A stretch of DNA of 64,000 nt from Deinococcales bacterium. Lineage in GTDB: Bacteria; Deinococcota; Deinococci; Deinococcales; JAAFIG01. The notes under the pieces were generated by a model. That model made no database searches and was not told the DNA's origin. It worked only from the letters and a program-made list of their open reading frames with translations. Location: NCBI GenBank assembly GCA_043778225.1, contig JAYWGM010000080.1, forward strand, positions 1 through 64,000, given 5' to 3'. This document shows positions 1 through 44,441 of the stretch, piece after piece. Positions within the stretch are counted from its first letter, which is position 1; every line of letters begins with the position of its first letter. The position numbers and the translations under genes were made by a program.

Positions 1-16
1 GCCCGATTGGCTTAAA

Positions 17-2691: not shown

Positions 2692-2748
2692 AGATGACCA
2701 GCACGATAAAAACTACCATTTAACCCTAATTATGTCTAGGGTTACAAT
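2692..2748 (-). promoter_or_regulatory. CRISPR leader (short; probably extends into the cas2 3' end)
   Basis: AT-rich segment between cas2 stop and first repeat; contains inverted repeat TAACCCTA-N8-TAGGGTTA at 2721-2744. Confidence 0.7.
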
Positions 2749-3153
2749 TCAAATAGACTCGAGTTCAGAATTTTCAACTGTCAATGTACTCGCGGCGAGA
2801 TTACCTTCTAAATTGTGTATTCGCCGCAATTGCTTTTCTTGGCGTTCTGCTTTCTCTTGCATATAGTTTTCCCATGCGGCATTTTTTACTGCAATAAGGG
2901 TTAGACCCTCGAGGTTTAGAATACTGCGTTTACTGTCGCCGTGCATCCGAATCGCAAAGCCTTGTTCGTTGTTGGTGCGGTGTACCAGTATGCACCTACC
3001 ATTCTTGCCTTTTTCAATCACTTTCTCCCAAAGTAAATCGCGTACCAAGGCACTGACTGTTCCCACAAATACGCCCGTGGCAACCTCAAGCATCCAGCGT
3101 GTCAGTTCGCCGCGTAGTCCAACTGGTACTTTCTCGAGGATGATCGTGGTCAT
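2749..3153 (-). CDS. cas2: Type I-E Cas2 with ~40-aa C-terminal extension
   Basis: MTTIILEKVPVGLRGELTRWMLEVATGVFVG...NEQGF matches I-E Cas2; follows cas1. Confidence 0.95.
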   Translation of the reverse strand: MTTIILEKVPVGLRGELTRWMLEVATGVFVGTVSALVRDLLWEKVIEKGKNGRCILVHRTNNEQGFAIRMHGDSKRSILNLEGLTLIAVKNAAWENYMQEKAERQEKQLRRIHNLEGNLAASTLTVENSELESI

Positions 3154-4097
3154 TCTGGGGTCTCCTCGAGTTGGGAGTGGTTAATACCGCCTTCAACTTC
3201 ACCGTTGACATCCCAGATTGCGCCTGGTTTAGCCGAGTCGTTTTCAAATTCATCGGTCTCGAGACCATCGAATAAGCTGTGCAAGTCTTTGACTACCCGC
3301 TCGAGGAGTTTGCCAGTGCGGATGGTTTCGCGCAGGGCGTTGCGGGTTCGGGTTTCGACTTTCTGAGTATCTTCGGCGACCACGGCAAAGGCTGTGGGTA
3401 TCAGCATTTCGGCTTTGTACAAGTCGGCTACATCGTAGACAAAACTCAGTTGCTTGCCTGTATGAATAAATCCTAGGGCGGTACTGTACCCACTCGAGAC
3501 AATCGCGGCATGGCAGACTCCGTACAGGCTGGCACTGCCAGAGGATAAGGCTCGGTTGATCGGGTCTGAATCTGCCCAGTTGCCCCTATTGTAATTTCTG
3601 CCTTTCCATTCGATACCGTGTTCTAAACTGGCTTTGGCATAACTTTCTCGAACCCGTACCCCTTCGTGTCCGCGTAATTGCTCGAGCGTAATGTCAGTCG
3701 GGAGTTTTTCGGTAAAGCGCATTCGGTACATTCTTTTAACGACTTCCAAGTGGGTGGTGTCGTTCGCCCAGAGCCGAGCTTGTTTTAGGAGGTTGCGACT
3801 CGAGCGGGTCTCGCCTGTACCACTGGCATAAAAACGTTGGTGTTCCTCGCCGACCCAGTGAATACTGCAACCATTGCTGGCTAGGGCTTTAACGGCGGCA
3901 TGGGTGATACTCGTTCCGGGTCCGAGCATCAGCACACCAAGACTGGCGGCTGGAACACTGGTAAAACCATCTTCGTTTAGGACAGCAATGCTGTGTTGGT
4001 CTTGTTCAATTTTGGAATACTCGAGGTAAAGGTAAGACAAACCATCACGGAATTTTGGGAGTTCAGCGTAATTGATGCTACTTTTTACAGGTGGCAT
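3150..4097 (-). CDS. cas1: Type I-E Cas1
   Basis: LMLGPGTSITHAA, LRGHEGVRVR, LGFIHTGKQLSFVYDVADLYK motifs; start placed at ATG 4097 after GAAAGGAG. Confidence 0.97.
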   Translation of the reverse strand: MPPVKSSINYAELPKFRDGLSYLYLEYSKIEQDQHSIAVLNEDGFTSVPAASLGVLMLGPGTSITHAAVKALASNGCSIHWVGEEHQRFYASGTGETRSSRNLLKQARLWANDTTHLEVVKRMYRMRFTEKLPTDITLEQLRGHEGVRVRESYAKASLEHGIEWKGRNYNRGNWADSDPINRALSSGSASLYGVCHAAIVSSGYSTALGFIHTGKQLSFVYDVADLYKAEMLIPTAFAVVAEDTQKVETRTRNALRETIRTGKLLERVVKDLHSLFDGLETDEFENDSAKPGAIWDVNGEVEGGINHSQLEETPE

Positions 4098-4124
4098 GAT
4101 TTCTCCTTTCTCGAGCAATGAAAA

Positions 4125-4151
4125 GCCAGTGGGCAGGTTGCCCAGTCTGGC
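4125..4151 (-). terminator. Stem-loop between cas6e and cas1
   Basis: GCCAG-TGGGCA-ggt-TGCCCA-gt-CTGGC. Confidence 0.4.
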
Positions 4152-4165
4152 ACTAAAGGGTTTGA

Positions 4166-4732
4166 TTAACCGATGCTGAGAAGTCCTAGCCCAAGGGCTT
4201 TGCTATGCCCAATTCCTTTTTGCAAGGTGGTTTGGAACAGCTCAAGGTTGGTAATTTTTAGGTGTCCATCGAATTCGGCAACGGCTAAGGTGATGGGGTC
4301 GGAATTGGAATCTTTACGAACCTTCCAGCAATCGGAATGAGAAACCATTGCTCCTAGAAGCCCAAAGCCCCCGCAAAGGGCTTGGCGCTCGAGCCACGGC
4401 ATCTGAGTCTCGAGGGTGTACAGACCCCTGCGTTTGCCTGCTTGGGTGATGGTGGGATTGGTTCGCAGGCGAAAGCGGTAAGTGCGTTCGGTGGAAAGGG
4501 TGAATTCTAGGGGTTTAGATTCAGATGGACGCAACAAGTAATTTGGCTCGAGTTGACCCCAATCAGGGCGGGACTGGGTTTGAACCAGCAAAATCGTATC
4601 CTCGAGTCGCCACAAGTAATTCTTTTCAGGCTCGAGAATTCGGGATAAGGTTTGGTGCATTTTATACGGATTAGCAGCATCGGCTCGAGCCAAGCGCGAA
4701 CGGGGATTTAGGGTCAGGCGCGAGAAGTACAT
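4166..4732 (-). CDS. cas6e: Cas6e (Cse3) crRNA endoribonuclease
   Basis: MYFSRLTLNP, YKMHQTL, FRLRTNPT, C-terminal GIGHSKALGLGLL G-loop. Confidence 0.95.
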   Translation of the reverse strand: MYFSRLTLNPRSRLARADAANPYKMHQTLSRILEPEKNYLWRLEDTILLVQTQSRPDWGQLEPNYLLRPSESKPLEFTLSTERTYRFRLRTNPTITQAGKRRGLYTLETQMPWLERQALCGGFGLLGAMVSHSDCWKVRKDSNSDPITLAVAEFDGHLKITNLELFQTTLQKGIGHSKALGLGLLSIG

Positions 4733-5355
4733 TAAGCACCTCCTATTTGCACATAACGAGCAGCGTATTTTCGTTCGGCAAAACTCGAGATTGGTTGGTC
4801 ATAGCGTAAACTACCCGTTGCAACGGTTGACTCGAGAATAACACGTGTACCAATGGGTTCATCCGATTCGATCTTTGAGATGTTGGTTGGGTATTTAAGG
4901 GCTTCTTCGAGTGATTCTGGACGCAAACCATCAGGCAACCAAATCGGTAGGCTTGGCACAAAGGCTTTACGCCCAAGTGACAATGAAAAAACAGGATTTT
5001 GTAACGCAGTCTGAGCTTGCTCGAGTAAAGCTTGGTTTGTACCTTCGACTCCGACCAGAAAAGCCGCTTCTGCTAGGTAATGCCGCCATGTTTGCACCGT
5101 GCTTTTTTTGGCACCCATCTGAGCAGTTTGATAATCTGTAAAACGCCGACCAGATTTATCCACACGCACACCCATTCGTAAAGCCGCCAGTTCGAGGGTA
5201 CGAAGGCTATCTTCTCGAGGGATACCCAGTGCAGCACAGAGCAAACCAACCACACCACTTTTACTGGGTTCATTATCGGTATCGCGGTCATCGAATTGAC
5301 TGCGTGTTCCCCAGCTTTGCATTGGGGCTACAAAACGCATTAAAAGCGTAGGCAT
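4732..5355 (-). CDS. cas5: Cas5e
   Basis: MPTLLMRFVAPMQSWG...PSKSGVVGLLCAALG, LGRKAFVPS; start reset to ATG 5355, just after the cas7 stop. Confidence 0.95.
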   Translation of the reverse strand: MPTLLMRFVAPMQSWGTRSQFDDRDTDNEPSKSGVVGLLCAALGIPREDSLRTLELAALRMGVRVDKSGRRFTDYQTAQMGAKKSTVQTWRHYLAEAAFLVGVEGTNQALLEQAQTALQNPVFSLSLGRKAFVPSLPIWLPDGLRPESLEEALKYPTNISKIESDEPIGTRVILESTVATGSLRYDQPISSFAERKYAARYVQIGGA

Positions 5356-5357
5356 GG

Positions 5358-6554
5358 TTACGCCCCAAGTTTCTGCATGGCGTTTTCGACAGCAGTACGA
5401 ATCAGGTTCTCGAGTGATACTATTTCTGTACCGATTTCGGCTTGGTAATCTGTTCCATTCCATTGAACCGTATCGCCGCCTTGGGCGTAAAACGATTCGA
5501 GTTTTTGCCATTGTCCAGCAAATTGTTTCAAGCTGGCTTGGGTCAAATTAAGGTTGGTTTTACTGACCTCATCAAAATGCGGTTTGGCAGGTAGTTCAAA
5601 CGCATTGGCAAGGTTGCGCGGACTGGCATTTCCTCGAGCCGTAAAGGCAATAAAACTTGGTGGATTATGAGCAGCAAAGGTATTTTGTTTACCTGATGGT
5701 GCAGACAGTACAGCCGCCATCAAAAACGCCTCGAGTCCTTTTTTGACCAGTTCGGTATCGTTCTGCAAATTCTTTTGTAACTGCTCTAAGTCAATCACCA
5801 AGTACCGATAGTAACAAGCGCTATTAAATTCGACTGTGCCTAACATTCCAGCCCCTGCGTCAGCTTCGTCATTCTGGTTTTTAAGGTCATCCACAGCCGT
5901 AAAGAAATCAAATTCTCGTTCGACTTTATTGGTACTGATTGCATGAGCCACTTGGCAAGCCGCGTCTTGATTTTTGTTGGGCATATCCGCCAGCATTCGC
6001 CCAAACAAGGCTACATCTACAGCATCACCACCGTCGCCTCTGGAGTGCATGGCTTTTGCAAGGGCTTTTTTAACTTCATCAGGCACGGCATCTTTAGCAG
6101 CCTTCTTGGCTTCTTTGGCTTTTTTACCATCGCCTGATTCCGCAACAATGTTTGACAAGGCATCCCAGTTTTCATGGATAATCTGAGCAATTTTATCTAA
6201 TTCACTTGCACCCAGAAAAATTAGGTACTGGGTTTTACCATCCTCGAGTTTTAAGCCTAAACCTTGAATACCAGCTTGAATGGCAGCTTCGGCGGCACTG
6301 GTATCGCGTCCCAAATTAGCTAGACGTGTTGTCACAGCTTCAACCAGTAATTGAGTACGTTCACCAAGGTGCTTAGGCTCGAGCAAATGGTGTTCGCGGA
6401 CGTGGGTTCGCATGGCGCGTTTTAGGCTTTGGCTGCTGATTCTGGCACGGCGATAGCCACCAAAAAAAGCATCTTTAGGGCTGCCTGTATCATCACGGTT
6501 TAGGTTGCTAGGGGCAAAGTTTTGCAGAATATGAAGCTCGAGTAATGCTTTCAT
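5358..6554 (-). CDS. cas7: Cas7e (Cse4)
   Basis: [51 protein letters not shown]. Confidence 0.97.
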
Positions 6555-6556
6555 GG

Positions 6557-7090
6557 TTAATTCTCCTTGGGTGTTGCTGGGGTTTGGGAGGTGTCAGTAG
6601 CTGTGTTGATATGGCGATAAAACGATTTTGCCCATTTACGCTGTGTGGTTTTACTTTCGGCATTCCAGTATTTCAAGTCCTTGAGAAGTTCTACCCAATC
6701 AATCAGCGCAGTGTCTTTTAAGAGTGCAATCATTTGGCGCAAACGGTACTGCACTTGGTCTATATCAGCATCGAGCAGAGCAATAAACCGATCTTCAATA
6801 CTTTTGGACTTTTGCCGAGCTACAAATAATTCAGCCACGCTTAAACCCAAGTTTCGAGGCTCGAGATACGGCACGGGCTTATCTGGATTTGGACGTTCAA
6901 CCAAGGCAAATAATCCTGCCACCAAATAATACATATCGCTTTCAAAACGGCTTGAGGTGTGCATTGCAAAATTCTCGACAATCCGAAAAGCTGGTGCATG
7001 CGTTCCAGCCTCAAATGCCAAACTGCGGCGTAATTCGGCTAATTCGGCACGCTCGAGTTTCCAAAGTCGGTCTATTAGGGCTTGGCTCAT
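6557..7090 (-). CDS. cse2: Cas11e (Cse2/CasB)
   Basis: Small helical protein ([31 protein letters not shown]) located between cas8e and cas7. Confidence 0.9.
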
Positions 7091-8619
7091 GCTTTCTCCT
7101 TTTTCTTGGGTTCGTCCCCTCGGCGCAGCAACGCCTCGAGCATTCCCTTGGCACTTTCGGCGGCTCTGAGTGCCTTAGCTGTAAATCCTGCACTGATTTC
7201 GGCTTGCTTGAAAGCATCTTTAGCCATTTTCTCGGTGTTCAAAATCCAATCTTGCTCGAGTTGACCGCGCACCGCATCAAATTCGTCTGGATTAGCGGGT
7301 AGGCTTGCAAGAAAAACCGTAAAAGCCCGTTCTAAAGCCGTCCAATAGACAGCTTGATGCCCAAAGGTACTGGATAACTTACGGGTATCTTCGGGCAGTG
7401 GTTTACGCTCACCTGCTCCGATAATCTTCTCGGCAAGGGTTCGGGCAGCCGCTTCGAGATTACGCCCAATACGTTCAGTAATTTGGAGGATTCGTTCAAC
7501 AAAAGTTCGGATTTCATGGTCAGACAAAACCAATTCAGGCAGCACAAACGCCTCGGCTCGAGTCATTAGAACCTTGGCTTTATCATTGGCTTGGGCAAAA
7601 ACATAAACCCTAAGTTGACCTCGTTGCCCTAGTAACCTAAGAATTTCTCGGGCATTCTCGAGGGTTGCGATGGTGCTTGCGCCATCTGGTTTAGGCACAA
7701 GTGCATGAAAATCTCGCCATAAACCCTTACCTTGAAATAATCCTAATTTCCGAGGCTCACCTTTGGCATTTAGGTACGATGCCGCCATTGGTTCTTTAGT
7801 ACCATCACCGTCCAAACCAACACCCGCCGCGAACGCCATAAACCGTACAGCACCATCATCTTGTTCTAAGCGAATGGCTCGAGGCATCCAAGTGTAACGG
7901 TCTGTAATCCCGCGCATGGCGGCTTTGAAACCACCTTCGAGTTGCTTAAAGCGTACAGGGTCACGTTCCCAAATTGGTGAATCGATTTTTCGATCCATGG
8001 CTGGATAGATCACTAAATTTAGGGTTAGCGTCTCGAGTAAATTCTGACCTGCTGCCATGACCAAAGCAGTATTAGCACTTGGCGCAGAACCCATGGCAGT
8101 AACACCCAAACGTTTAACCAATCCACCAAGTGCAAACCCTTGATGCTCAAGCAAATGCAGCACCGCTTCGGCAGGAGTAATACCATCGGTAGCATTGGGG
8201 ACATTTTCACGAAGGCGTTCATTGAACAAAAATGTTGTATTACCACTGCCACGTTCGGTGGACAGTTTTGACCAGTGGTCGGTTAAACCCTCGAGTGGTA
8301 AGTCTGGCACTTGCATAAATGGTGTAGTCCCAAATAAATCAAAACGGTCATGCCATCTATCCAAGTACGCCCGAATTTTAGGTGCTGGAAACCCATCTAA
8401 AAACCATTGTGCTGCATCTTCTGGTCGGTCAGGACCTTCCAAAGCACGGTGCAAAACCGCCAGTAAAAATCGGTAAACAGCAACTGAAACAAGTGGATTT
8501 GAATGCTCAAGACGCTCAAATTGCTTTGCCTCGAGCAATGCTGTTTCGAGTGAAACCAGTTGTACTGTGTGACCAGTACGAACAGGAATCCAAGGCTCTG
8601 TACAAAGATTAAAACTCAA
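7087..8619 (-). CDS. cse1: Cas8e (Cse1/CasA)
   Basis: FNLCTEPWIPV, RFDLFGTTPFMQ, NLLETLTLNL motifs; AGGAGG RBS. Confidence 0.93.
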   Translation of the reverse strand: MSFNLCTEPWIPVRTGHTVQLVSLETALLEAKQFERLEHSNPLVSVAVYRFLLAVLHRALEGPDRPEDAAQWFLDGFPAPKIRAYLDRWHDRFDLFGTTPFMQVPDLPLEGLTDHWSKLSTERGSGNTTFLFNERLRENVPNATDGITPAEAVLHLLEHQGFALGGLVKRLGVTAMGSAPSANTALVMAAGQNLLETLTLNLVIYPAMDRKIDSPIWERDPVRFKQLEGGFKAAMRGITDRYTWMPRAIRLEQDDGAVRFMAFAAGVGLDGDGTKEPMAASYLNAKGEPRKLGLFQGKGLWRDFHALVPKPDGASTIATLENAREILRLLGQRGQLRVYVFAQANDKAKVLMTRAEAFVLPELVLSDHEIRTFVERILQITERIGRNLEAAARTLAEKIIGAGERKPLPEDTRKLSSTFGHQAVYWTALERAFTVFLASLPANPDEFDAVRGQLEQDWILNTEKMAKDAFKQAEISAGFTAKALRAAESAKGMLEALLRRGDEPKKKEKA

Positions 8620-8658
8620 TTTGCCCTCCTAGAATCTGCGAGAAGTCGAATTTGCCGA

Positions 8659-11352
8659 TTATTTCTCATAGACCACCCCTTCTTCTGAATCCAAGCGAAC
8701 CAGTGTTTTTCCAAATTGGGCAATTCCACCCTCGAGAATCAATGGCATCATGCCTTGCAAAAGTGGTGTTTCCTGCCATGGCAAAGATTTGAAATGCTGT
8801 TTCACGTGCTGCTCTATGCCGTAAACAATTGCTTTGCGCCCTAAGCGCACACTCTGGGCATAAATTTCTTTGGCTGCCTCTAAATCCAATCTGGCTTTGT
8901 CCGAAACTGGTTTTGTTGCATTAGAATCAAGATAAAACGCACCGGCTATCTTAAAAATGGGGACTACCGTAATGCTTTCTTCGCCTTTGCGAGTGCTGAC
9001 TCGTTTTGTTCCAGCCATGACTTCATCTTCGGTACTCGAGCGAAAACCTCGGGTTGGGTCTTCCCAAGATGTATCTTGGGGATTACCAATCACAGCTTGG
9101 GTGGCATCTATGACATTGCGATCTTCCTCGCCTAGCAATAATAAATGGGCTTTCTCGAGGATTTGTTTTAAGTTTTCGTTTAGTTCGCCAAGTGGTGTGT
9201 CGCCGTACACCAGTTGCACCAACGTATCAATGTCATCTGGAAACTCGAGTTGCTGCGTACCCGCTAGGGCTTGCCATGTTCTTAGTAAAATGTATTTAGC
9301 ATAAACAAATTGCCAATGGTTCGTCTCGAGGTCTGGTTGTATTGTGGCATCGGTTAAACCAGCAATAAATAAGACTGGTTCAGTGTGAATTCCTCGGTTG
9401 CCATCATTCACCGAATGCCGATGCAACCGCCCTGCGCGTTGTAACAATAAATCTATTGGAGCTAAGTCTGAAATCATCAGGTCAAAGTCCAAATCAAGGC
9501 TTTGTTCAACCACTTGGGTGGCAATAAGAATGGCTTTTACTGGTCGGTTTGGATTGGCTTTTGAACCTTTTTTACTAAATGCTTCTAAACAAGCCTGTTC
9601 GCGTTTTTGGCGTTCTGCCACAGGAAACCGTGCATGGAAAAGTAAGACAGGAGTTCCAAACTCGTTGTCTTTAAGCAGTCTATACAGTCTTTGAGCGCGG
9701 TCTACTGTGTTGGAAATAAATACAGCACACCCTTGAACTTTGGTCAACTCGAGTAGTGTATCTGCCAGCACTTCGTCTTCTTGATTTAGAGGTTTGATAA
9801 ATACGGTTTTATGACCACTGGCAGGAACATGAACACAAGTGGTTTTTTTGCTCGAGACTTTTGTAATACGCGGGTACGGTTTTGAGTCATGGTTTTCTGA
9901 ACCAAATGCCTCGAGCAGCGCTATCCGTTTCTTTGCGGGTAAAGTCGCGCTCATCACAATAACGCTTGAACCCAAGGCAAAAAGCCATTGCACCAACGTT
10001 TCAATCAGTGAACCTGTGTATGTGTCGTAAGCATGAACTTCGTCGAGAACAACGACACGGTTGCCCAATCCCCAAAGTCTGACAAATTGGTGCTTAACAT
10101 TCAGTACACCCAAGAGCGCTTGGTCTACTGTGCCAACCCCGTACTCGGATAATAATGCACGTTTACGATGTGAAAAATAAGCTCGAGCCACCACAAGTTC
10201 TTCGGGTTTATCGGCAATGTCCTTGATGACAATATCTTGGTATTCTGCTTTTAATAACGTTGCACCATGCAGCAACTGCAAATCCAAGCGTGAGGCTCGA
10301 GCTTCGCCAAATTGCTTTAAGAAGTCTTGGGTACGGTTAAACATCGCGTTTCCTGTGGCTTGGGTTGGCAACGCCACATACATTCCACGATGTCCATTCA
10401 GACGTTGTAATTCGAGGTGCGCGTACAAGGCAAGCTCGGTTTTCCCTTCGCCCATTGGTGCTTCGACAATCAACAGCGTGGGTGAAGTTACACCTTTAAG
10501 TAAATCAACTATGGCTATCTGTAGCGCTCGAGGATAGAACACAGCCTCTGGTTCAACCAAATAAGAAAAGGTTTTTTCAAGAGATTGTTTTTTGTCAATG
10601 AGCGGTTCTCGAGCCGACCAACCTACTTTATCCAAAGCAATTCGAGCGCGTTTTTTAGCCAGTAAAAAATAAGTTTCCACGGCTTCAAATTGGGCAAACG
10701 GTAGGCTTGAACCTATCCAATCGGCAAAACTGGTCAGTCCCGCAAGGCGCTGGAATGCTCCTGCTGTTAGAAAATCTGAGTTAGGGGTACTTTGTATATT
10801 GAGTGCTTCCAGTACCGCTTCAAATAATTCTGTTCTCACATTTGCCCATTGAACACCGCCATTTTCGGCTCGAGTATCCGCTTTACCCAATAAACCTGCT
10901 TCAACTCGCCAACCGTGATGAGCGCCAACCGCATCCGCCGCTAGTCGGGCTGCGCGTAAAGACCAACCTCGAGTTGGCAACAATCGACATAATTCCAGTT
11001 GCGACACTGCACTGTGCGGAACGTCATCTGGGGGTTTGGTTTGATTGTTATTCCAAGGTAGGTATTCTTTAACTCTTTCGCGCCCACCCTCCCATTTTTG
11101 TTGAAAAGCAGGACTGGCTTTACCAAGGTCATGTAAACCAACCAAAGCACAAACCCAAGGCTTGGTTTGGTCTAGCTCGAGACCAAAATCTATTGCAAAT
11201 AACTGAATTGTGCTAACTGGTTCACGCTCGAGAATCTCCCATGCACAAGCTGCTACATCGAGTAAATGAGCAATTACCGAATGCCCATCAGGAGGGTCAG
11301 TCTCAAGTTTAGGGCTTTTCGCCCAGAGTGCTTTGGCTGCTTCGGATAACAT
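8659..11352 (-). CDS. cas3: Cas3 HD nuclease-helicase
   Basis: LWAKS, HLLDV, LHDLGKAS, ADWIGS; APMGEGKTE, DEVHAYD, ATQVVEQSLDLDFD, QRAGRLHRH. Confidence 0.98.
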   Translation of the reverse strand: MLSEAAKALWAKSPKLETDPPDGHSVIAHLLDVAACAWEILEREPVSTIQLFAIDFGLELDQTKPWVCALVGLHDLGKASPAFQQKWEGGRERVKEYLPWNNNQTKPPDDVPHSAVSQLELCRLLPTRGWSLRAARLAADAVGAHHGWRVEAGLLGKADTRAENGGVQWANVRTELFEAVLEALNIQSTPNSDFLTAGAFQRLAGLTSFADWIGSSLPFAQFEAVETYFLLAKKRARIALDKVGWSAREPLIDKKQSLEKTFSYLVEPEAVFYPRALQIAIVDLLKGVTSPTLLIVEAPMGEGKTELALYAHLELQRLNGHRGMYVALPTQATGNAMFNRTQDFLKQFGEARASRLDLQLLHGATLLKAEYQDIVIKDIADKPEELVVARAYFSHRKRALLSEYGVGTVDQALLGVLNVKHQFVRLWGLGNRVVVLDEVHAYDTYTGSLIETLVQWLFALGSSVIVMSATLPAKKRIALLEAFGSENHDSKPYPRITKVSSKKTTCVHVPASGHKTVFIKPLNQEDEVLADTLLELTKVQGCAVFISNTVDRAQRLYRLLKDNEFGTPVLLFHARFPVAERQKREQACLEAFSKKGSKANPNRPVKAILIATQVVEQSLDLDFDLMISDLAPIDLLLQRAGRLHRHSVNDGNRGIHTEPVLFIAGLTDATIQPDLETNHWQFVYAKYILLRTWQALAGTQQLEFPDDIDTLVQLVYGDTPLGELNENLKQILEKAHLLLLGEEDRNVIDATQAVIGNPQDTSWEDPTRGFRSSTEDEVMAGTKRVSTRKGEESITVVPIFKIAGAFYLDSNATKPVSDKARLDLEAAKEIYAQSVRLGRKAIVYGIEQHVKQHFKSLPWQETPLLQGMMPLILEGGIAQFGKTLVRLDSEEGVVYEK

Positions 11353-12344
11353 TATGCACCTCCAAATTTTTCAATCACATCTCGAGCTTCTTTTAACCAA
11401 AGCTCGCGCAGAAAAAGCGGCTCGAGAATTTCAACATTTGCACCCCAACCTCGAATAAATGGCATCAGTTCTACAGGTATACCCGCGTTATTCACCCCTG
11501 TTTGAATGGTCATAATCAGGTTGTTATCATCATCACTTTCTAGCCTTAACACACCCGGTAAGCGCCGATGCTCGAGCCAGCGCCGTACACTGGCGTTGAA
11601 TTTAAGCCTGACAATAATTGGTTTGCGGTCTCCGATTACACCCCAAGCATTTGAAAGGTAGGCTTGTGGGTCAAAATCCTCGGGGATGCTGTACTGCTCG
11701 TTTAGTGGTGTAACCCCTTGCATCAAAGACAGTAAATAGGTGCGGACTTCATAGGGCGGGTGATTGGTTCTGCGTCCGATGACATAAATCTCGAAGTTGC
11801 TTCTGGAAATTTCGACCAGATAAATCTCGAGATTATTGCGCCGGTCTTTTTGACTGGTACTGCTCAAAGCAAGGTATTCAAAAGTGATGGCTCGGCGTTG
11901 TGTCCAGCAGTTAGCAATCTTCTCGAATTGCGAGAATTTCTCGTCTGTGCCTTGGTTATTGGGTAAGGATAATTGGGCTATTTTTTGTAATTCAATGGGC
12001 ATCTGCGGGGTAATTTTCTCGAGTGCATTGCGGTAACTTTGCGGTGGGTTGCTGGTGTGATGAAAAAGTAAACGCAAGGCAATATGAGTGACCAGCGCTT
12101 CATCAGCTTTTAGTTGCGGCAGGGCTTCTCGAGTTAAGGTGTAGGTTTGAGGGCGTTTGTTATCGGCTTCAATATCGTTTCCCTGAGCGCGTAAATCTTC
12201 AAAATCACGCAGGATGGCTCGATGACTGGCTTTGTCATGCACAATTTTGAGCCGTTGGCAGATTTCTTCAATGCTGCGTGATTTGGTACGCAGCATTTCA
12301 AGCACTTCCTGAACGCGCAGCGTCTTTTTTCGGGTTACTTTCAT
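11352..12344 (-). CDS. HTH-WYL-WCX transcriptional regulator translationally coupled to cas3
   Basis: N-terminal HTH (RAILRDFEDL), WYL-like core, FDPQAYLSNAWGV, GWGANVEILEP; start at ATG 12344 after GGAG; stop overlaps the cas3 ATG. Confidence 0.9.
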   Translation of the reverse strand: MKVTRKKTLRVQEVLEMLRTKSRSIEEICQRLKIVHDKASHRAILRDFEDLRAQGNDIEADNKRPQTYTLTREALPQLKADEALVTHIALRLLFHHTSNPPQSYRNALEKITPQMPIELQKIAQLSLPNNQGTDEKFSQFEKIANCWTQRRAITFEYLALSSTSQKDRRNNLEIYLVEISRSNFEIYVIGRRTNHPPYEVRTYLLSLMQGVTPLNEQYSIPEDFDPQAYLSNAWGVIGDRKPIIVRLKFNASVRRWLEHRRLPGVLRLESDDDNNLIMTIQTGVNNAGIPVELMPFIRGWGANVEILEPLFLRELWLKEARDVIEKFGGA

Positions 12345-12453
12345 GGGTTTCTCCAAATGGTTCATTGACACGACAATACTCGAGACCCGTCGCCTGATGG
12401 TCGCATCTAATGATAATTTAAGTTTACACACTGATAATCTGAGTGTACTTAAC

Positions 12454-14112
12454 TCAATTCAAGTCGCGTGGTTGATGCTCAAAAGACCGTATTCGCTCGA
12501 GTACCCATTCTTCATTTACACCTGTCATAAACACCGAAACGCTTTCGCCATTGTCTCTTGCTTGTCGCACATCGTACTGCCAAGTGCTGTTTAGGTCGAG
12601 GCTGTAGACCCCACCTTGTTGTTGAATACTCTCTTGCCAACCTAGTGCTTCTCGCAAAGACACCACCGCTTTTGAAATCAGTTTTTGTTTAGCTCGAGCC
12701 TCGGTCTTGGTGGTATTTGGGTAGAAATCAAGCAGCAATTGACGGGCGCTGCGTGACCCTTGATGCTCAAGCAGTAAGACCAATAATTGGGCAGCACGAT
12801 TGGTTGGATTGAGGCTGAGGCGACGCTGATTGATACTGATTTGCAATGTTCCTCTGGCTTTTACTTGGATTTGGAAACGTGAATTGGTTTGGATTAGTGT
12901 TGGTAAGGTGATGTTCATACTGACCAAGAGGGCTTGAAGTTTTGGGAAGGCTATCAGTTCATCGCGTCCCCAGAGGCTATGCCAACGTACTTTTTTAGCG
13001 TACTCGAGCGCGAGGTTCGGATTTTGATGTCGGCGGGCTATTTCGGCATAAATAATCTGACGGCGTTCTTCATCCTCACCACCGCCTTGCCATTGCTCGA
13101 GGGCGTGTTGGGCAGTTTCTACATTTCCATTGGCAAGCCGTGCTGCCGCTAAGTCTGGGTAAATCGTTAAGGGATGGTGGTGTTTCTTTTGGATGGCTAA
13201 GGCTTTTTGTAAGTAAGGCAGGGCTTGGCTAGGATTACCTTGTAAGCGCAGGGTATGACCGATGCCACGCTGGGCTTGGATTTCATCAAATGGTTCTTTG
13301 GCTAGTTTTAAGGCTTTTTTATAAGCAAAAATAGCTCGTTGGTATTCACCTGCGGCTCGCCACGATAAACCAAAACCACGCCATGCTTGTGATAAAAACA
13401 TTTTGGCATCTGGATGTAAGGCTCGTTTTAGGAGTTGGGCATAGTACGTTTCAGCTTCCTCGAGTTTAAGTTCTCTGACACAGGATAAACCTAGGTTAGC
13501 CATGATTTTAGCTTCATAAAAAGCATCGGTTGTAAAAAATGATTTGGCTATTGCCCAGTGTTCTCGAGCCATTGCCCCTTGAAGTTCTAATTCAAGCGCT
13601 CTTCCCCATTCAAAATGCACCAAACCAGTCTGTCGCCCAGTGGTGTGCTTGGCTGCCCGTTCAAAAGCCTGTTGCCAGTTAGGTAAACCAAGTTCATAAC
13701 TGGCTTCGGCAAGCACCCGATGTGCCAAGTCGTGACGGAAATCTGTTTCTAAAGCAGCTTGGGCTTGCTCGAGTGCCGCGATGGGCTTTGAGCAGCGCAA
13801 CAAGGCAAGGGCATGAAGGGCTAAGGCTTGTGGTGGGGTTGGTATTATGGTCTCGAGGACACCCAAGGCTTTTTCAAAAGCTCGAGCGCAAAGCAGTAAC
13901 TCTGCGAAAACCAATTGATTTTGCTGGGTGCGGGGCAGATGGTTTTCTATCGGCTCGAGAATTCGCACAAAATCCTGATGTTGTTGAAGATTACGGGCTA
14001 AACGCAGTACAGAAGGCAATGATTGTGCCAAGGCAAACCAGTTTTTTGTCTGAATCAATTTTTTGCATTGACTAAAATACTCATTCCATTGAAGACTGGT
14101 ACTGATTCGCAT
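12454..14112 (-). CDS. TPR-repeat protein with C-terminal winged-helix-like (SARP/AfsR-type) domain
   Basis: Multiple TPR helices (AIFAYKKALKLA, ALPYLQKALAI), then IQVKARGTLQISINQ..AAQLLVLLL..VSLREALG; leaderless TACACT upstream. Confidence 0.75.
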   Translation of the reverse strand: MRISTSLQWNEYFSQCKKLIQTKNWFALAQSLPSVLRLARNLQQHQDFVRILEPIENHLPRTQQNQLVFAELLLCARAFEKALGVLETIIPTPPQALALHALALLRCSKPIAALEQAQAALETDFRHDLAHRVLAEASYELGLPNWQQAFERAAKHTTGRQTGLVHFEWGRALELELQGAMAREHWAIAKSFFTTDAFYEAKIMANLGLSCVRELKLEEAETYYAQLLKRALHPDAKMFLSQAWRGFGLSWRAAGEYQRAIFAYKKALKLAKEPFDEIQAQRGIGHTLRLQGNPSQALPYLQKALAIQKKHHHPLTIYPDLAAARLANGNVETAQHALEQWQGGGEDEERRQIIYAEIARRHQNPNLALEYAKKVRWHSLWGRDELIAFPKLQALLVSMNITLPTLIQTNSRFQIQVKARGTLQISINQRRLSLNPTNRAAQLLVLLLEHQGSRSARQLLLDFYPNTTKTEARAKQKLISKAVVSLREALGWQESIQQQGGVYSLDLNSTWQYDVRQARDNGESVSVFMTGVNEEWVLERIRSFEHQPRDLN

Positions 14113-14121: not shown

Positions 14122-14153
14122 TGTAGCGCCAAAAGTAAGCTCTTGGCGCTACA
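14122..14153 (-). terminator. Hairpin after the peptide gene, overlapping the -10 box of the TPR gene
   Basis: TGTAGCGCCAA-N10-TTGGCGCTACA perfect 11-bp stem. Confidence 0.65.
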
Positions 14154-14161: not shown

Positions 14162-14296
14162 TTAACCGCCAGAGCCACCACCAGGGTCATCCCCAGCCAT
14201 CAACACAGGGGTAGGGTTGGAGATGACTGTATTTGGAACTGCCACCACCGCTAAGAGGAACACCGCGACCAGAACTTGAACGACACGCTTGAACAT
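14162..14296 (-). CDS. 44-aa putative secreted peptide precursor MFKRVVQVLVAVFLLAVVAVPNTVISNPTPVLMAGDDPGGGSGG
   Basis: Below the ORF-track cutoff; translated by hand. AAAGGAG RBS, basic N-terminus plus hydrophobic core, downstream hairpin. Confidence 0.75.
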   Translation of the reverse strand: MFKRVVQVLVAVFLLAVVAVPNTVISNPTPVLMAGDDPGGGSGG

Positions 14297-28700: not shown

Positions 28701-29387
28701 AAAACGCCCGGCTGTACCACGGCGCTCAAAGACCCCACCAAAACGCCCCATCAACGACCGCAATTGCGTCTCGAGTGAATCTGGGTGCTGCATCGCGGGC
28801 AAGCGCAAGGCTTTCCAAAGGCTTGTGCCACCAAAACTGGGTTGACCCTCCAAAAAAGACTCAAGGCTCGAGATAACACTGCGGTAAGCACTCGAAGAAG
28901 CAATCACTTCATCCTCGAACAAATCTTTATAGGGCATAAAAGCGGGGTTGTTGTTCTCGAGCCAGAGCAGCAGCATTTCCTCGAGCAGAATTTCTTTGTT
29001 GGCAGGCAAAGCCAAGTAATCCTCGAGTGTTTGCTTATTTTGGTAAACCGCCGTCGGTGGGAATTCTTGGGCGAAGCGCGTCAGCGTTGCATCCAAACGT
29101 TCGCCGTACTGCGCTCCCAATGCCTCAAGCGCCTCTTGCCAAAGCCTTGGCGCATGGTTCTCGCGGTACTCGAGCAGCAGACCATGCAGCACCTCGTCTA
29201 TCAAGCCCATGGCGTTGATGTCGCCGGCTCTGGCATTGCGCCCCGGTGTGACCGCATTGAGGGCGGCAGCAAAACGCCGCGCCGCCGCGAAGTCGGCAAA
29301 AATCACCCGTCCAGAGGTGGTGAACAGCGCCGCATCAAAATTATGGCGGTCACGGACGGAGCGCAGGATATGTAGCTCGAGATTCAT
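25707..29387 (-). CDS. Alpha-amylase (GH13) family protein with C-terminal Lys-rich linker and helix-hairpin-helix domain
   Basis: DMVPNHTG, IRFDAAMTL, LLAEAFW, FLSNPDE; C-terminal DDLARIEGIGPKIAAAL. Confidence 0.88.
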   Translation of the reverse strand: MNLELHILRSVRDRHNFDAALFTTSGRVIFADFAAARRFAAALNAVTPGRNARAGDINAMGLIDEVLHGLLLEYRENHAPRLWQEALEALGAQYGERLDATLTRFAQEFPPTAVYQNKQTLEDYLALPANKEILLEEMLLLWLENNNPAFMPYKDLFEDEVIASSSAYRSVISSLESFLEGQPSFGGTSLWKALRLPAMQHPDSLETQLRSLMGRFGGVFERRGTAGRFATLELKLRGGLDLFAEEARFFVAQNVRDFDGGGAEFKAEAQIRTVSRQMLEDEPEAFTLDQNWMPRVVLIAKNAFVWLDQLSKQYNRQIRTLDQIPDAELENMARWGITGLWLIGLWERSQASKEIKHRMGNPDAVASAYSLWDYSIAVALGGEPALENLKTRAWRVGIRMASDMVPNHTGIDSKWMAEHPDWFLQRPTSPYPSYSYTSQNLSADSRMQVFLEDHYYDKSDAAVTFKYVGQNGETRIIYHGNDGTSLPWNDTAQLDYINPAAREAVIQTIFRVARQFPIIRFDAAMTLAKRHIKRLWFPEPGSGEGIASRSEYGMTREEFDRIMPNEFWREVVDRAATEVPDTLLLAEAFWMMEGYFVRTLGMHRVYNSAFMVMLRDERNAEYREVIKNTLEFEPEILKRYVNFLSNPDEKTAVEQFGKTDKYFGIMTLCATLPGLPMLGHGQVEGYTEKYGMEYQRAYYDEKPDLGFMAHHETQIFPLLKKRYLFAEVEHFALFEVTHDHVFAFSNRAGSERALVFYNNSTHFANVTINSCLYSERQSGIAEALQLSSQSNHFAIYRDNVSGLEYIKNSARINQDGFSVQLGAYGRAVLLGWYEITDSDGRYARLEQMLGGRGVEDIKTAVQELYLEKILTPWNDLINSSTARALLEPSAVLYGELEAKAKSLADGIEAHSKKDLAGAMFAVGLRADLEQLVCSTSEAALEQMALITIRRVAMLTEQTPQKIADEWLLARQLTRAFRDTSNGNAGRSAARVLLLVTTHEALETAKTSAAIFKILLADVNAVMAIGLNTFEDKRYVHAEAFAAFVESASRGSSQVKLLEKTEKMVIQNGYCLDFETTKPSKEKIEKPVKTVKSKVVVTQPSKSRKSVLVTTKTKVSTKPTVAKAKGIAKSAKAKIADVDDLARIEGIGPKIAAALVASGITTFSSLAATDAQALKAALESAKIRLAPSQSTWAEQAKLLATGNEIGFTALTKTLVAGRKPTTKAVLK

Positions 29388-29537
29388 GAGAGCAGGATAC
29401 CACAGTGCTTAAACGCGTTTGAAACCGTTACGTTTTTGGCGTACAAAAGCCAAGTATCAAAAAAGTATAGCTTGGCACGCCACACCAAAGCTCATCACAA
29501 GCTCGAGTATCGTATGCCAATATCATTTGAATAAATT

Positions 29538-29642
29538 TTACTTGCCACCAGCAACACTAGGAAGACCATTAGCCAGTGCAAATTGCGTGACAGCCATTGC
29601 CAAGACAATCAAACGAAAACCAATTAAACGTACTTTTTTCAT
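29538..29642 (-). CDS. 34-aa putative secreted peptide precursor MKKVRLIGFRLIVLAMAVTQFALANGLPSVAGGK
   Basis: GGAGG RBS 5 nt before ATG; Sec-type signal ending in A-L-A. Confidence 0.7.
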   Translation of the reverse strand: MKKVRLIGFRLIVLAMAVTQFALANGLPSVAGGK

Positions 29643-29732
29643 ACAAACCTCCAGAGTTTGTGAAGCTCCGTTAGTTTGTGCTAACCTCAGTGAGAAGCTG
29701 TCTGTCCAAATCAACAAAAACGGTGAAAGACT

Positions 29733-31670
29733 GTGATTTACGAACCCAATCCGATCCTCGAGTGCTACCTCAGTGACCAATTTGACCTTGGCATCGAGAC
29801 TTTTGATTTGCTCGAGACCGCAACACCGCTCGACTTACTTTGGGTTGGGCAGTGCCATTTTGGGCTTGACCACCATGTCGAAGCCCTCCATTATTTTTAT
29901 CAAGCCAGCGCTCGAGGATATGTCGAGGGAACAATTTTTGCCTCAACTGTTTTGCGCTTTATTGGCAGCCACCAATTAGCCAATCAACTGCTGGCACAGG
30001 TCATGCACAAAGACCTTTCGGTATTTGGTCAGGCGGCTTGGTACAGAGAAAATGGTCTGCAATTGGTCGCAATGCGCCATTTTGCCTTGGCAATTCCAGA
30101 ACTTGAACAGGCTTGGCGAATTGCCAGTGCCGACCCCATAGGGCAGCGTTTACTGGCTCGCTATTCGCAAAGTCTGGCTTTAGCACTGCTCGAGATTGGA
30201 CGCGACCAAAACGCCTTGAAATACCTCAACTTGGCAATTAATCCAAAAAAACCGAATCCCGATTTACTTGTACTACGAAGTTCTGCTCTTGCTTACAGTG
30301 GTGAATTTACCAAAGCCAAAGCAGACCTCGAGCAATTTCGTCAACTGGTTTCAGGTTCTCAGTCCACTTGGACTCATTTGGTTCATGGTTTTATCGCACG
30401 CTGTCAAGGTTTAATCGAACAAGCTACAACCATCTACCTTGAAACCGCCTCGAGTGCCAAAACCCTAGGCGAATGGGAAACCGAATTCTATGCCGAGGTC
30501 GCCTTGTGTGCCTTACTCACCGAACAAGGCAGTTACCACGTTGCCCAAGCACACCTGTCCAGAGCGCATGGGGTTATTCCTTTGCCGCGTGAAGATTTTG
30601 CGGTTCACGAAGCCATGATTGCCATGCGTCATGCTGCCCTACAAACATCCCAAGGCAATAAAGAGGCAATCAACACGCTCCAGCACGTCGCCCTCATCCT
30701 TGGACAGCGAAAACTCGAGCGCGAACTTGGCATTGCCGAACTGCACTTGTCCGAAGCCTATTTTTATAACAACCAGCAACAAGCAGGATTATCAGCTTTG
30801 GCTCGAGCCATTCATTTGCGTCATGCGGTTGGCAGCCAAGCCTATTTTGCCCTTGAATTACGCGCCTTGCCTCATGTTTTCCAGACCGTTTGCGGCTTGA
30901 GAATTCGAGGCACAGATGTTTTCTACCAAGATTGGCAAACCCTAGAACGCCAAAGCCCACACGAAGTACAACTGACGACCCTAGGAGATTATTCGATTCG
31001 GCTCAATGGACAAGTCGTTAAACTTGATTCTGGCACAGCCAAAGCAGTCGAATTTCTGGCGTACTTACTCGAGGCTGGCGAATCGCGTTTAGACCAGATG
31101 ATTAGCGAAATTTTTGATTCTGGCTCGCACAGCACCGCCCGTAATCGTATTCATAAGTTACGTGAATCAATCGCTCGGCAAATACCCGGCTTAATTGTTC
31201 CGCATAACAAAGAACGCAATACCTATCACCTCGAGCCAGTCGGTGTGCGTTTGCGCTGGGATGTGCGCGAACTCCGCAAAGCCCTCGAACAGGGTGGTGT
31301 GACTGGAATGCAGCGCGTACTTTCGATGTACACAGGAGCATTCTTACCGCGCAGCGAAACCCAATGGGCAGAACAGACGCGCTTTGAACTTGAATTGAGC
31401 ATTACCGAAGTTGGTCTTGAAACCCTCAACGAACTCTTTAAGCTCGAGCGCTTTGATGAGTGCTTACGATTAGCCGAACGACTGGCACAGATTGCCAACA
31501 TGAGTCTTGGAATTCAACTGCTGCTCTTAAAAGCCACGATTCGGGTACACGGGGCAATTGCGGCTCGAGAACGACTCTTAAAAATAGACCCCATCATCCA
31601 AAACGATTTGCGAACCCTTCCAGAATTGCAATTTGAATTTCGCAACGCAGAGCGCGAATTTTTGAATTAA
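29733..31670 (+). CDS. TPR + winged-helix + BTAD transcriptional regulator
   Basis: N-terminal TPR helices; VQLTTLGDYSIRLNG, KAVEFLAYLL, WDVRELR, YTGAFLPRSETQWAEQTR. Confidence 0.8.
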   Translation: MIYEPNPILECYLSDQFDLGIETFDLLETATPLDLLWVGQCHFGLDHHVEALHYFYQASARGYVEGTIFASTVLRFIGSHQLANQLLAQVMHKDLSVFGQAAWYRENGLQLVAMRHFALAIPELEQAWRIASADPIGQRLLARYSQSLALALLEIGRDQNALKYLNLAINPKKPNPDLLVLRSSALAYSGEFTKAKADLEQFRQLVSGSQSTWTHLVHGFIARCQGLIEQATTIYLETASSAKTLGEWETEFYAEVALCALLTEQGSYHVAQAHLSRAHGVIPLPREDFAVHEAMIAMRHAALQTSQGNKEAINTLQHVALILGQRKLERELGIAELHLSEAYFYNNQQQAGLSALARAIHLRHAVGSQAYFALELRALPHVFQTVCGLRIRGTDVFYQDWQTLERQSPHEVQLTTLGDYSIRLNGQVVKLDSGTAKAVEFLAYLLEAGESRLDQMISEIFDSGSHSTARNRIHKLRESIARQIPGLIVPHNKERNTYHLEPVGVRLRWDVRELRKALEQGGVTGMQRVLSMYTGAFLPRSETQWAEQTRFELELSITEVGLETLNELFKLERFDECLRLAERLAQIANMSLGIQLLLLKATIRVHGAIAARERLLKIDPIIQNDLRTLPELQFEFRNAEREFLN

Positions 31671-31693: not shown

Positions 31694-32296
31694 ATGAAAA
31701 TAAAAAATATCCTTGAGCATTGGGGCATCAGTGTTGAAGAACTCAGCACCGCCATTCTCGAGAACGGCAGCTTACGTGGCATGGTTTTTGGTTATGTTGC
31801 CGAAATCAAATTGCGTCAATTACTCGAGCAAAACCCGTTGGTCAGTTTAATTGTCAAAGACAACGACCATGACCGTACTCGAAAAGCAGATTTACGAATT
31901 CGATACCGCGATGTTGAATTTCGGCTCGAGAGTAAATCGTTGCAAACCAATTCGATTAAAAAATTACCTGACGGCACTTTTACTGGCAAAACCCAAGTGG
32001 ACGGCAGTGACCGACGCTTGGTACGCTTTGCCGATGGCTCAAGTCTCGAGACAATCTTATTATTGCCAAATCAGTTTGACGTGCTGGCGGTCAATTGTTT
32101 TGCTTTCGAGGATACGTGGTACTGGTTATTCGCTCGTAATTCAGATTTACCACGCTCGAGTTTTAAGCGTTATACCCCCGAGCAGCAGCGAGGTTTACTG
32201 GCTTCGCTGGTAGAGGTGCATAAGCCAGCCCGAGGGGTTTTTAGTGATGATTTATTTGTCTTGCTCGACCAAATGATGGCTGACGGTCACGGTTGA
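31694..32296 (+). CDS. Putative PD-(D/E)XK restriction endonuclease
   Basis: [24 protein letters not shown] (E..D..ExK); convergent with and overlapping a DNA MTase gene. Confidence 0.65.
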
Positions 32297-33096
32297 AGAT
32301 GAACAATACTCGAGATTTTGGTTTTAACTTTCTGGAATACCAAAAAGTAAGAATGGTTTTTTCGGGCATGAACCTGAGTTTTCAAGCGGCTAATGCTTGG
32401 GCGGTTTGGGCGCACAAGCACAAACAAATCTTTACTGTACAAACCCATTGATTCATAAGCACTGATAATTTCGACATGGGTCAGGCGTTGTTTATTAGCA
32501 CTGACTTCATCTTGGCATTTAACAATCAGCATCCCACCCATTTTCAAGACACGGTTGGCTTCACGCCCAGCTTTGATGTACATATCTATCACGGCTTCGT
32601 GCCACTTTGGCTCGCCCTGAGTTTGGGCTTGTCCACTCGAGTAACTACGCCGAAAAGCAGCGTGGCTTCCGCCCCCTGCAAGCTGTTCGACATCACGACG
32701 GTACAGTCCTTCCATATAGGGTGGGTCAAGGATAATTGCATCGAGCGAACCTGTTTGGTACGGTAAATCACGACAATCTACGCCATTTTGAATTTCGATT
32801 TGATGAACCAAGTCTCGAGTATTTTTTGCTTCAATATCCGAGAAAAACAGTTGATATTTCTGAACTGGGATTCGTTGCCAAAAGACACCTTTCCCGTAGG
32901 TCACATCAGCAATTTTACTGCCACCGGGCAAGTGCAATTCGGCGATTTCGGCAAACATTTCGGCATTCCCTGTTGTGGCTGCTGATAAAATGAGATCGCT
33001 GCTGGACTTTCCACCTTGAATCCGTTTTGAGCCTGATTTTGGTATGGTAGTCGTTACAAGCTCAGTTTGACCAAAAAGTTCGGATTGCCGATTCAT
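32287..33096 (-). CDS. Amino (N6A/N4C) DNA methyltransferase
   Basis: ADVTYGKG (motif I-like), ILDPPY (motif IV), RVLKMGG. Confidence 0.85.
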
Positions 33097-33121: not shown

Positions 33122-33135
33122 CAATGTGTCAAGCC

Positions 33136-33384
33136 ATGAAACCAAAAACCCTAAGAATTCAAGTCACCCTACGCCAACACCTCGAGCAAATTGGGGTCAG
33201 TGCTTATATGCTCGGAAAAATGACAAATCAAGTCAGCCCACAAACCATTTATGCGATTGCTAACGGTAGCCGAAAACCGAGTCTAGAAGCGCTAGAAGCC
33301 ATATTGAATGCTCTTCATCAACAGGGTTTTAGTACCACACTCGAAGATTTAATCTTTGTTGAATCTGAACCGTTTAATCCCTAA
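33136..33384 (+). CDS. XRE/Cro-like HTH protein (possible R-M controller)
   Basis: VSAYMLGK..VSPQTIYAIANGSRKPSLEALEAI. Confidence 0.8.
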   Translation: MKPKTLRIQVTLRQHLEQIGVSAYMLGKMTNQVSPQTIYAIANGSRKPSLEALEAILNALHQQGFSTTLEDLIFVESEPFNP

Positions 33385-36407: not shown

Positions 36408-36433
36408 TCAATAATAGCGCATTTTACAAAAGT

Positions 36434-36455
36434 AATGAAACGCAAATGAAACGCA
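36434..36455 (+). promoter_or_regulatory. 11-bp direct repeat, candidate SARP-type operator
   Basis: AATGAAACGCA x2 in tandem, upstream of TACTTT and the lipoprotein RBS. Confidence 0.6.
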
Positions 36456-36491
36456 ACTGGGGCAAACTACTTTTAGGAAAAGGAGAAAATC

Positions 36492-39511: not shown

Positions 39512-39565
39512 TTGGTACAGCCCCTAAACAGTAAGCCAGCCATTTATCGTAGTATGCAAGGCATC

Positions 39566-41953: not shown

Positions 41954-42079
41954 ATTCTTCTGGCTCGAGCATCGGCAAGTACACCAAAACTAAAGCTGGA
42001 TTCTTATACAGACAGTTTGGTGTTTATCGAAGCTGCAAAATAGCTCAAGCCAAAAAAGTTTTGTGCTGCTCGAGTTGGT

Positions 42080-43234: not shown

Positions 43235-43237
43235 CCG

Positions 43238-44430: not shown

Positions 44431-44441
44431 TTTAGCTCAAG

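Follow-up and report, generated by a model that had tools for sequence, protein, structure and literature searches.

A probable peptide-receptor signaling module of Deinococcota: a gene for a predicted secreted micro-peptide paired with a TPR-SARP regulator

A divergent pair of genes, encoding the 34-aa precursor of a predicted secreted micro-peptide and a 645-aa regulator, is most likely an RRNPP-like but non-RRNPP peptide signaling module of Deinococcota, with the domain order of the receptor inverted. The pair lies in the window (the whole analyzed stretch of 64,000 nucleotides), which also contains a second, related pair in front of a CRISPR-Cas locus (Table 1). Comparison of related loci shows that the pairing is a family trait across Deinococcota, and the module is real and apparently undescribed. 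We consider it probable that the peptide is the ligand of the receptor in a signaling loop. A preliminary description had reported the 34-aa ORF, its GGAGG ribosome-binding site, an A-L-A signal-peptidase-like site, a 90-bp gap to the receptor, and a 23-bp gap from the receptor to the next gene, and all its coordinates are right.

Table 1. Coordinates of the two peptide-receptor pairs and their neighbors in the window
Feature	Position	Strand	Basis or remark
Pre-peptide gene, 34 aa	29538..29642	-	Ortholog, substitution pattern, family alignment
Predicted Sec/SPase I signal, residues 1-24	29642-29571	-	By-eye reading and conservation
Predicted mature peptide NGLPSVAGGK, 10 aa, residues 25-34	29570-29541	-	Follows A-L-A
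Shine-Dalgarno (SD) sequence GGAGG of the peptide gene	29652..29648	-	5 nt before ATG; kept in locus L018
Intrinsic-terminator-like hairpin with T run, 3' of the peptide gene	29464..29486	-	Region folds at z -3.0
Divergent control region, 90 bp, peptide gene to receptor GTG	29643..29732	.	
Receptor/regulator (subfamily B), 645 aa	29733..31670	+	AF2, structural search, Pfam of members
Predicted N-terminal cap and nine TPR helix pairs	about residues 1-406 of the 645-aa receptor	+	AF2
Predicted OmpR-type winged helix and BTAD (SARP module)	about residues 410-645, nt 30960-31670	+	AF2
Putative type II restriction endonuclease (PD-(D/E)XK-like)	31694..32296	+	Atlas "restriction endonuclease family" clusters; methylase co-occurrence
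DNA methyltransferase (N6_N4_Mtase), convergent with the nuclease	32287..33096	-	Own sigma70-like promoter at 33132-33104
HTH_3 protein	33124..33384	+	HTH gene accompanies nuclease homolog on plasmids
Sister pre-peptide gene, 44 aa, motif at C-terminus, 49 bp before receptor	14162..14296	-	
Strong hairpin between subfamily A peptide and receptor	14122..14153	-	z -4.4
Sister receptor (subfamily A), 552 aa: TPR superhelix, winged helix, truncated BTAD	12454..14112	-	Model, profiles
WYL gene, cas3, type I-E cas operon, 44-repeat CRISPR array	3..12431	-	Downstream of the subfamily A pair

The precursor starts with a basic n-region, continues with a hydrophobic core, and reads A-L-A at residues 22-24. 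These n-, h-, and c-regions and the A-x-A signature were recognized by our own detector and by conservation, and the cleavage site was placed by eye and from the conservation of A22 and A24. The closest ortholog, in locus L018, came from a GTDB scan; its receptor is 56% identical, and its peptide gene again encodes 34 aa, lies 89 bp from the receptor, has the same SD sequence and cleavage site, and yields a near-identical predicted mature peptide. Start, SD sequence, length, and stop are all kept between the two genes, and similarity falls past the stop. Mismatches are distributed as 10/7/20 over the codon positions, with pS 0.65 and pN 0.27 for the whole ORF and pS 0.85 and pN 0.20 for the predicted mature part. 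A second pair of orthologs, the peptide genes of L020 and L021, differ by seven synonymous versus two replacement changes, with four synonymous and no replacement changes in the mature part; with two pairs, the numbers in these tests are small. Because an ortholog exists and synonymous changes exceed replacement changes, the 34-aa ORF is, on sequence evidence, a gene. Selection appears to be stronger on the predicted mature part than on the rest of the precursor. Thus the micro-ORF is conserved with a substitution pattern of the purifying type, a point on which the preliminary description had let its proposal depend. Readings of the peptide as a lipoprotein or a RiPP were rejected, the precursor having no Cys lipobox and no modifying enzymes being encoded nearby.

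The terminator-like hairpin suggests a short stand-alone peptide transcript without run-on into the alpha-amylase gene. The latter, directly behind the terminator at 25707-29387 on the minus strand, encodes a 1226-aa alpha-amylase-family protein with a Lys-rich, helix-hairpin-helix (DUF4332) C-terminal tail.

The AlphaFold2 model of the receptor (110 sequences; pLDDT 95.7, pTM 0.90) confidently predicts a superhelix of nine TPR repeats, with an activator module of the SARP type joined to its C-terminal end. The top match in the structural search was MalT domain III (Z 29.7, rmsd 4.3, 346 aligned residues). The peptide-bound Rap of phage phi105 matched at Z 26.8 (rmsd 3.2, 321 aligned), NprR-NprX at Z 24.8 (rmsd 4.1, 322 aligned; tied with an unrelated human TPR protein), and AimR at Z 22.1, with RapI also matched; TPR superhelices score high generically, and unrelated TPR proteins reach Z 20-25 against this model. 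Similarly, Foldseek against PDB returned generic TPR proteins only, and a sequence-profile search of PDB gave generic TPR matches, with NprR and AfsR among them. Residues 405-645 superpose on AfsR (Z 15.9, rmsd 4.5, 234 aligned) and EmbR (Z 15.0). The TPR-wHTH-BTAD assignment of the preliminary description is supported by these matches and by Pfam BTAD hits in 30 of 60 family members, although the 645-aa protein itself has no Pfam BTAD match. No P-loop nucleotide-binding domain precedes the sensor, as judged by Pfam and by the all-helical N-terminal part of the model.

With clustering at 50% identity, 267 representatives of receptor homologs had an E-value of 0.001 or less, and for 106 it fell below 1e-30; family members are mostly 600-680 aa long. 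Those that carry a name, a minority of the 267, are all from Deinococcota. The GTDB scan, which used two narrow patterns and is not a census, produced 145 candidates and eight loci, all from Deinococcales. No match to either receptor subfamily was found in the phage collection.

To assess subfamily B we sampled 17 related loci and left out L019, which has no upstream DNA, and L027, a fragment. A divergent signal-peptide micro-ORF is present in 11 of the remaining 15 loci (L001, L002, L005, L018, and L020-L026) and absent in four (L003, L004, L006, and L007). The upstream position is taken by a transposase in L003 and by divergent lipoprotein genes in L004 and L006. On the receptor tree, peptide-bearing loci do not group together significantly (129 of 500 shuffles gave a value as low), and the receptors of L022 and L024 contain a frame break. 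The fixed detector found a divergent micro-ORF at 10 of the 15 receptor loci (L005 was missed) versus none of 116 control ORFs (Fisher p 1e-11). For this comparison the thresholds were set after some peptides had been seen, the controls may include spurious frames where the DNA is GC-rich, and the loci, being related, do not count as independent. In the tandem position, 3 of the 116 control ORFs were positive. The possibility raised in the preliminary description, that the pairing is no commoner than for random genes, is at odds with these counts.

The subfamily B peptides differ in sequence locus by locus. Their signal sequences vary freely, and the motif past the predicted cut is retained: the predicted mature N-termini share [D/N/E][P/G]…GG, in which D, N, or E is followed by P or G and further on by a stretch rich in Gly, often GGL. 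The gene after the peptide encodes a secreted peptidase in three loci, of the S8 type in L001 and L025 and of the M23 type in L026. The regions L001:1-3251 and L025:3526-7564 have the same order of peptide, S8 lipoprotein peptidase, and EAL-domain protein; the S8 peptidases contain a repeated Trp-containing motif, and the EAL protein of L025 is a TPR-GGDEF-EAL protein. At L020:247-1590, a second, split subfamily B receptor is convergent with the peptide gene, so that two receptor copies flank one peptide. In D. ficus (L007:3489-3692, minus strand), the secreted-peptide position is held by a 67-aa ORF that contains two copies of an 11-residue repeat; carboxypeptidase and lyase genes come next, an ATP-grasp gene is nearby, and the ORF could be a RiPP-like precursor.

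In the control region, GGTGA at 29722-29726 is an SD-like sequence for the receptor. An operator search over the divergent regions yielded no shared motif. SARPs bind phased direct repeats; the 11 divergent regions have a weak excess of repeats at 11 and 33 bp (z ~3, 28 periods tested), and a conserved TCACC near the receptor start was discarded as an operator, being explained by the receptor SD sequence. The putative recognition helix (receptor residues 468-478) is NYFHQ-like in most of the family and NRIHK in the clade of the 29733-31670 receptor, suggesting a changed operator in this clade.

The second pair in the window belongs to another subfamily, A. BLASTP between the two receptors is weak (E 0.003), and the profiles of the two subfamilies align over 456 columns (probability 99.3, E 1.3e-20). 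The aligned part begins in the TPRs, takes in the winged helix, and stops where the BTAD begins, which is also where the subfamily A proteins end. Because the profiles align, both receptors are accompanied by signal-peptide micro-ORFs, and the peptide motifs match, the two pairs are homologous rather than independent inventions. The preliminary description, which had argued from two independent pairs to a family rather than coincidence, was thus right about the family, both subfamilies being paired in Deinococcota, and mistaken about independence. The likeness in architecture that it had seen between the receptors extends to the TPRs and the winged helix, but the sister protein stops shortly past the BTAD start and its peptide gene is in tandem.

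Subfamily A was sampled as 10 of 12 plasmid matches, nine full-length and one of three distant ones from Thermus. A tandem signal-peptide micro-ORF is present in eight of the nine full-length loci (seven by the detector); it is absent from L015, where a transposase occupies its position, and from the Thermus locus. Scored against the subfamily B motif, the C-terminal tails of the A peptides sum to 90.1 versus 37.2 +/- 8.4 for shuffled sequences, a value reached in 0 of 200 shuffles and also in 0 of 200 tail-only shuffles, with two of the nine A peptides individually unremarkable. A WYL gene is next in eight of the nine plasmid loci, and cas3 or a cas operon lies within 4 kb in five of the nine. 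The order in the window is A peptide, hairpin, receptor, WYL, cas3, type I-E genes, and 44-repeat array, and the 12454-14112 receptor adjoins the cas genes. It matches the CRISPR-associated TPR profiles C3a198 and PDLC01171 near full length (E 3e-62 and 1e-101), and its model matches RRNPP proteins no higher than other TPR proteins. From 2749 to 14296, the peptide, TPR-wHTH receptor, WYL, cas3, and type I-E operon all point the same way. Deinococcus plasmids repeatedly carry the trio of peptide, TPR, and WYL genes, some together with cas genes and some not. A short HNH_3 fragment lies upstream of the subfamily A peptide (14451-14615, minus strand).

The scenario that we favor consists of five steps: (i) the micro-gene would be translated; (ii) the precursor would be exported by Sec and cut by signal peptidase I after A-x-A, releasing a Gly-rich peptide of ~10 aa; (iii) by analogy, the peptide would gather outside the cytoplasm and return via an oligopeptide permease; (iv) as the modeled fold and conservation indicate, it would bind in the concave groove of the nine-TPR superhelix; and (v) binding would switch the C-terminal SARP module, most likely on, as in AfsR and EmbR. 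The module would then bring RNA polymerase to the divergent promoter and thereby boost expression of the peptide gene and the genes after it, a positive feedback loop. Such a module would be portable, with B pairs fronting varied genes, often for secreted proteins, and A pairs fronting WYL and CRISPR-Cas; the restriction nuclease at 31694 would be at most a local read-through passenger. Several observations count against this model: the structural search puts first a domain that does not serve as a receptor for peptides, MalT domain III; 4 of 15 subfamily B loci have no peptide, two of which (L003 and L007) still keep the groove residues; and the terminator after the peptide gene speaks against a ready local target.

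Deinococcota have an outer membrane, and therefore the peptide may not leave the cell. The third step could accordingly be replaced while steps (i), (ii), (iv), and (v) and the ligand-receptor chemistry are retained: a periplasmic peptide would be re-imported by its own producer cell, not for quorum sensing but to measure time or to report leaks in the envelope, the signal being lost on breach. Export by Sec ends in the periplasm, the host envelope is thick and contains two membranes (established knowledge; also the accessible text of PMC9650054), and a cue of attack would be useful to the sister subfamily in front of WYL and CRISPR genes. However, the peptide sequences are locus-specific, as expected of kin signals, a ~10-aa peptide is small enough for escape to be plausible, and the secreted peptidases that follow the peptide gene in three loci also disfavor confinement. 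We regard this version as rather unlikely.

The main alternative to the ligand reading is that the peptide is an output, not an input: the TPR part would sense a small molecule or a protein, as MalT does, and the SARP module would activate a divergent gene for a secreted effector. This would agree with the best fold match, with the lipoprotein genes in the divergent position of L004 and L006, and with the Atlas MalT-like STAND proteins that have similar TPR-BTAD parts. Similar TPR-BTAD clusters in the Atlas come from Chloroflexota, Actinomycetota, and Pseudomonadota. An output role is harder to reconcile with the recurrence of the same motif in subfamily A, in tandem layout and at the opposite end of the precursor, with the lack of modification enzymes, an exporter, or an immunity gene beside the peptide, and with decay of the groove where the peptide is absent. 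The A helices line the TPR groove, and conserved polar or aromatic residues occupy 17 of 137 positions on A helices versus 5 of 129 on B helices. Receptors of the peptide-less sister pair L004/L006 have lost R75, T250, E255, R330, E331, and H338, with normal conservation of the C-terminal part; they keep 8-9 of 15 conserved groove sites versus 10-14 in peptide-bearing receptors. This loss is one event on a long branch, and the support from groove decay comes from that event only, since the other peptide-less receptors (L003 and L007) keep 12-14 sites. Receptor-peptide co-variation, a check proposed in the preliminary description, gave a correlation between the similarities of receptors and of peptides (Mantel rho 0.67), but the C-terminal part of the receptor correlates nearly as well (0.57), hence the correlation shows co-inheritance only and was discarded as a sign of binding. 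Overall, we consider an output role unlikely and retain the peptide as the candidate ligand.

The preliminary description had linked both pairs to adjacent defense genes, and by this reading the 29733 pair would serve specifically to switch the restriction-modification cassette that follows it according to cell density. The 31694..32296 ORF is probably a type II restriction nuclease, identified from Atlas names and methylase co-occurrence because it has no Pfam or PADLOC match and no solved relative by sequence; the HTH_3 protein is probably the controller of the cassette. The 23-bp gap on the same strand contains no significant hairpin (z -0.13), and no sigma70-like promoter occurs just before the nuclease; since nothing of this kind separates the two genes, read-through is possible. 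On the E. coli plasmid, moreover, an HTH gene directly precedes the nuclease homolog, in the place of the receptor here. Against a dedicated switch, an adjacent restriction-modification pair is found in 0 of 16 related loci (L019 and L020 being short contigs), and L018 shares only the peptide and the receptor with the window, its flanks being sugar-metabolism genes. The nuclease and methylase homologs occur together on four unrelated plasmids, from Escherichia, Shigella, Vibrio, and Leptospira, and these four records gave no match in the receptor searches. Because the flanks of L018 differ, the relatives have no such cassette, and the cassette travels alone, the adjacency is local and the cassette is an unrelated mobile unit; a link as a family trait was rejected, and we find the density-switch reading improbable.

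More generally, the neighbors of subfamily B vary from locus to locus. Genes of defense type lie near 3 of 16 relatives (Dam/HNH in L003, NERD-UvrD/HNH in L004, and Hen1/Pnkp in L005), and among the 11 peptide-bearing relatives only L005, with its Hen1/Pnkp RNA repair genes, has such a neighbor. Thus, neighboring defense genes characterize the 12454 subfamily (WYL/CRISPR) but not the 29733 subfamily. The last alternative, a chance open frame in the promoter region, could appeal to the commonness of short ORFs but is effectively refuted by the conserved start, SD sequence, length, and stop, by the codon-position pattern and the drop of conservation after the stop, and by the absence of detector hits in controls.

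Several other features of the window were recorded. Within 2 kb of the 29733-31670 pair, at 33570-38213, a canonical BTAD-NB-ARC-TPR (AfsR-like STAND) regulator is divergent from a gene for a 573-aa lipoprotein. The cluster at 38397-49252 includes a HerA/FtsK-like ATPase (39512-41953), with weak PADLOC matches to mad8, SduA, and CARF3 nearby, and is possibly a defense or integrative island. The palindrome CTCGAG is found 387 times in positions 1-64000, a density of 6 per kb, where about 14 copies in all would be expected. The sites lie in all sorts of genes, and the window lacks many other 6-base palindromes. In the Deinococcales MAG loci (L018-L023) the density of CTCGAG is 4-7 per kb, and Deinococcus loci have almost none. 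It resembles a highly iterated palindrome; a literature search for iterated CTCGAG returned nothing.

Peptide signaling via cytoplasmic TPR receptors has been described for Bacillota and their mobile elements. A two-membrane phylum and a SARP output would, if confirmed, widen the range of this signaling logic, explain what many Deinococcus "TPR/BTAD" genes do, and provide a mechanism for a CRISPR accessory family so far known only as "TPR protein". Subfamily A is a directly testable model for CRISPR-Cas switching in Deinococcus and Meiothermus, and the candidate ligands, at 8-11 aa, are short enough for synthesis and for testing in culturable strains; carriers that can be grown include D. taeanensis, D. 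gobiensis, and D. ficus for subfamily B and D. proteolyticus, D. radiophilus, and A. silvanus for subfamily A. With some hesitation, we suggest that Deinococcota may have a separately assembled superfamily of their own, combining a MalT-like TPR part, a SARP module, and a Gly-rich [D/N/E][P/G]…GG pheromone and working across a two-membrane envelope, with one branch placed before WYL-CRISPR-Cas so that immunity would be switched by a secreted peptide; the cue might be population density or "neighbor or envelope under attack".

We found no description of such peptide/TPR-SARP pairs in the full-text literature, a scope that mostly excludes subscription papers. Known cell-to-cell signaling in Deinococcus, DqsIR/AHL and LuxS/AI-2, uses small molecules, with no peptide system in the accessible text (PMC6300522). 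The available part of a survey of thermophiles likewise gives no complete peptide system (PMC6022435), and three signal-peptide small ORFs are listed for D. radiodurans without a link to a receptor in the excerpted text (PMC9650054). C3a198 (Mrub_1490), in the table available to us, is given only as "TPR protein", with no peptide, DNA-binding domain, or mechanism (PMC6546367). The 12454-14112 protein matches both this profile and PADLOC PDLC01171, whereas the 29733 protein has no PADLOC match at E 0.01 and is a distant homolog by profile-profile comparison only.

MalT and MalT-like STAND proteins provide the best match to the sensor fold and the same order of sensor followed by DNA-binding domain, and Atlas structure entries combine WHD_MalT with BTAD. 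Unlike MalT, the receptor has no ATPase or winged-helix oligomerization domains, its output is SARP rather than LuxR, and it has a micro-peptide partner. With the SARP regulators AfsR and EmbR it shares the OmpR-type winged helix followed by BTAD (Z 15-16 over the DNA-binding and BTAD parts). This module is C-terminal here instead of N-terminal, and neither NB-ARC nor FHA domains are present. To our knowledge, no peptide partner is known for SARPs.

The RRNPP(A) systems (Rap-Phr, NprR-NprX, PlcR-PapR, and AimR-AimP) are alike in that a small propeptide gene, of the Sec type there and by prediction here, adjoins the receptor gene in divergent or tandem layout, and in that the receptor is a cytoplasmic TPR superhelix comparable in size and fold. 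The 29733 pair has a propeptide of 34 aa (34-86 aa in relatives), within the RRNPP range of 10-100 aa, an RRNPP-like TPR fold, and direct adjacency of the two genes (90 bp here, with a divergent peptide in 11 of 15 relatives). On the other hand, its receptor is 645 aa long instead of 250-500 aa, and its TPRs come first (at about 27-406) and the SARP module last (410-645), where RRNPP receptors begin with an HTH or a helix bundle. RRNPP_detector limits receptors to 250-500 aa and discards N-terminal-TPR clusters, so that the main detection tool would exclude receptors of this type by length and domain order; the accessible text presents the RRNPP signature with no mention of Deinococcus (PMC10075063). 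The host phylum, Deinococcota, also differs, and in subfamily B, unlike RRNPP, the conserved motif directly follows the cleavage site.
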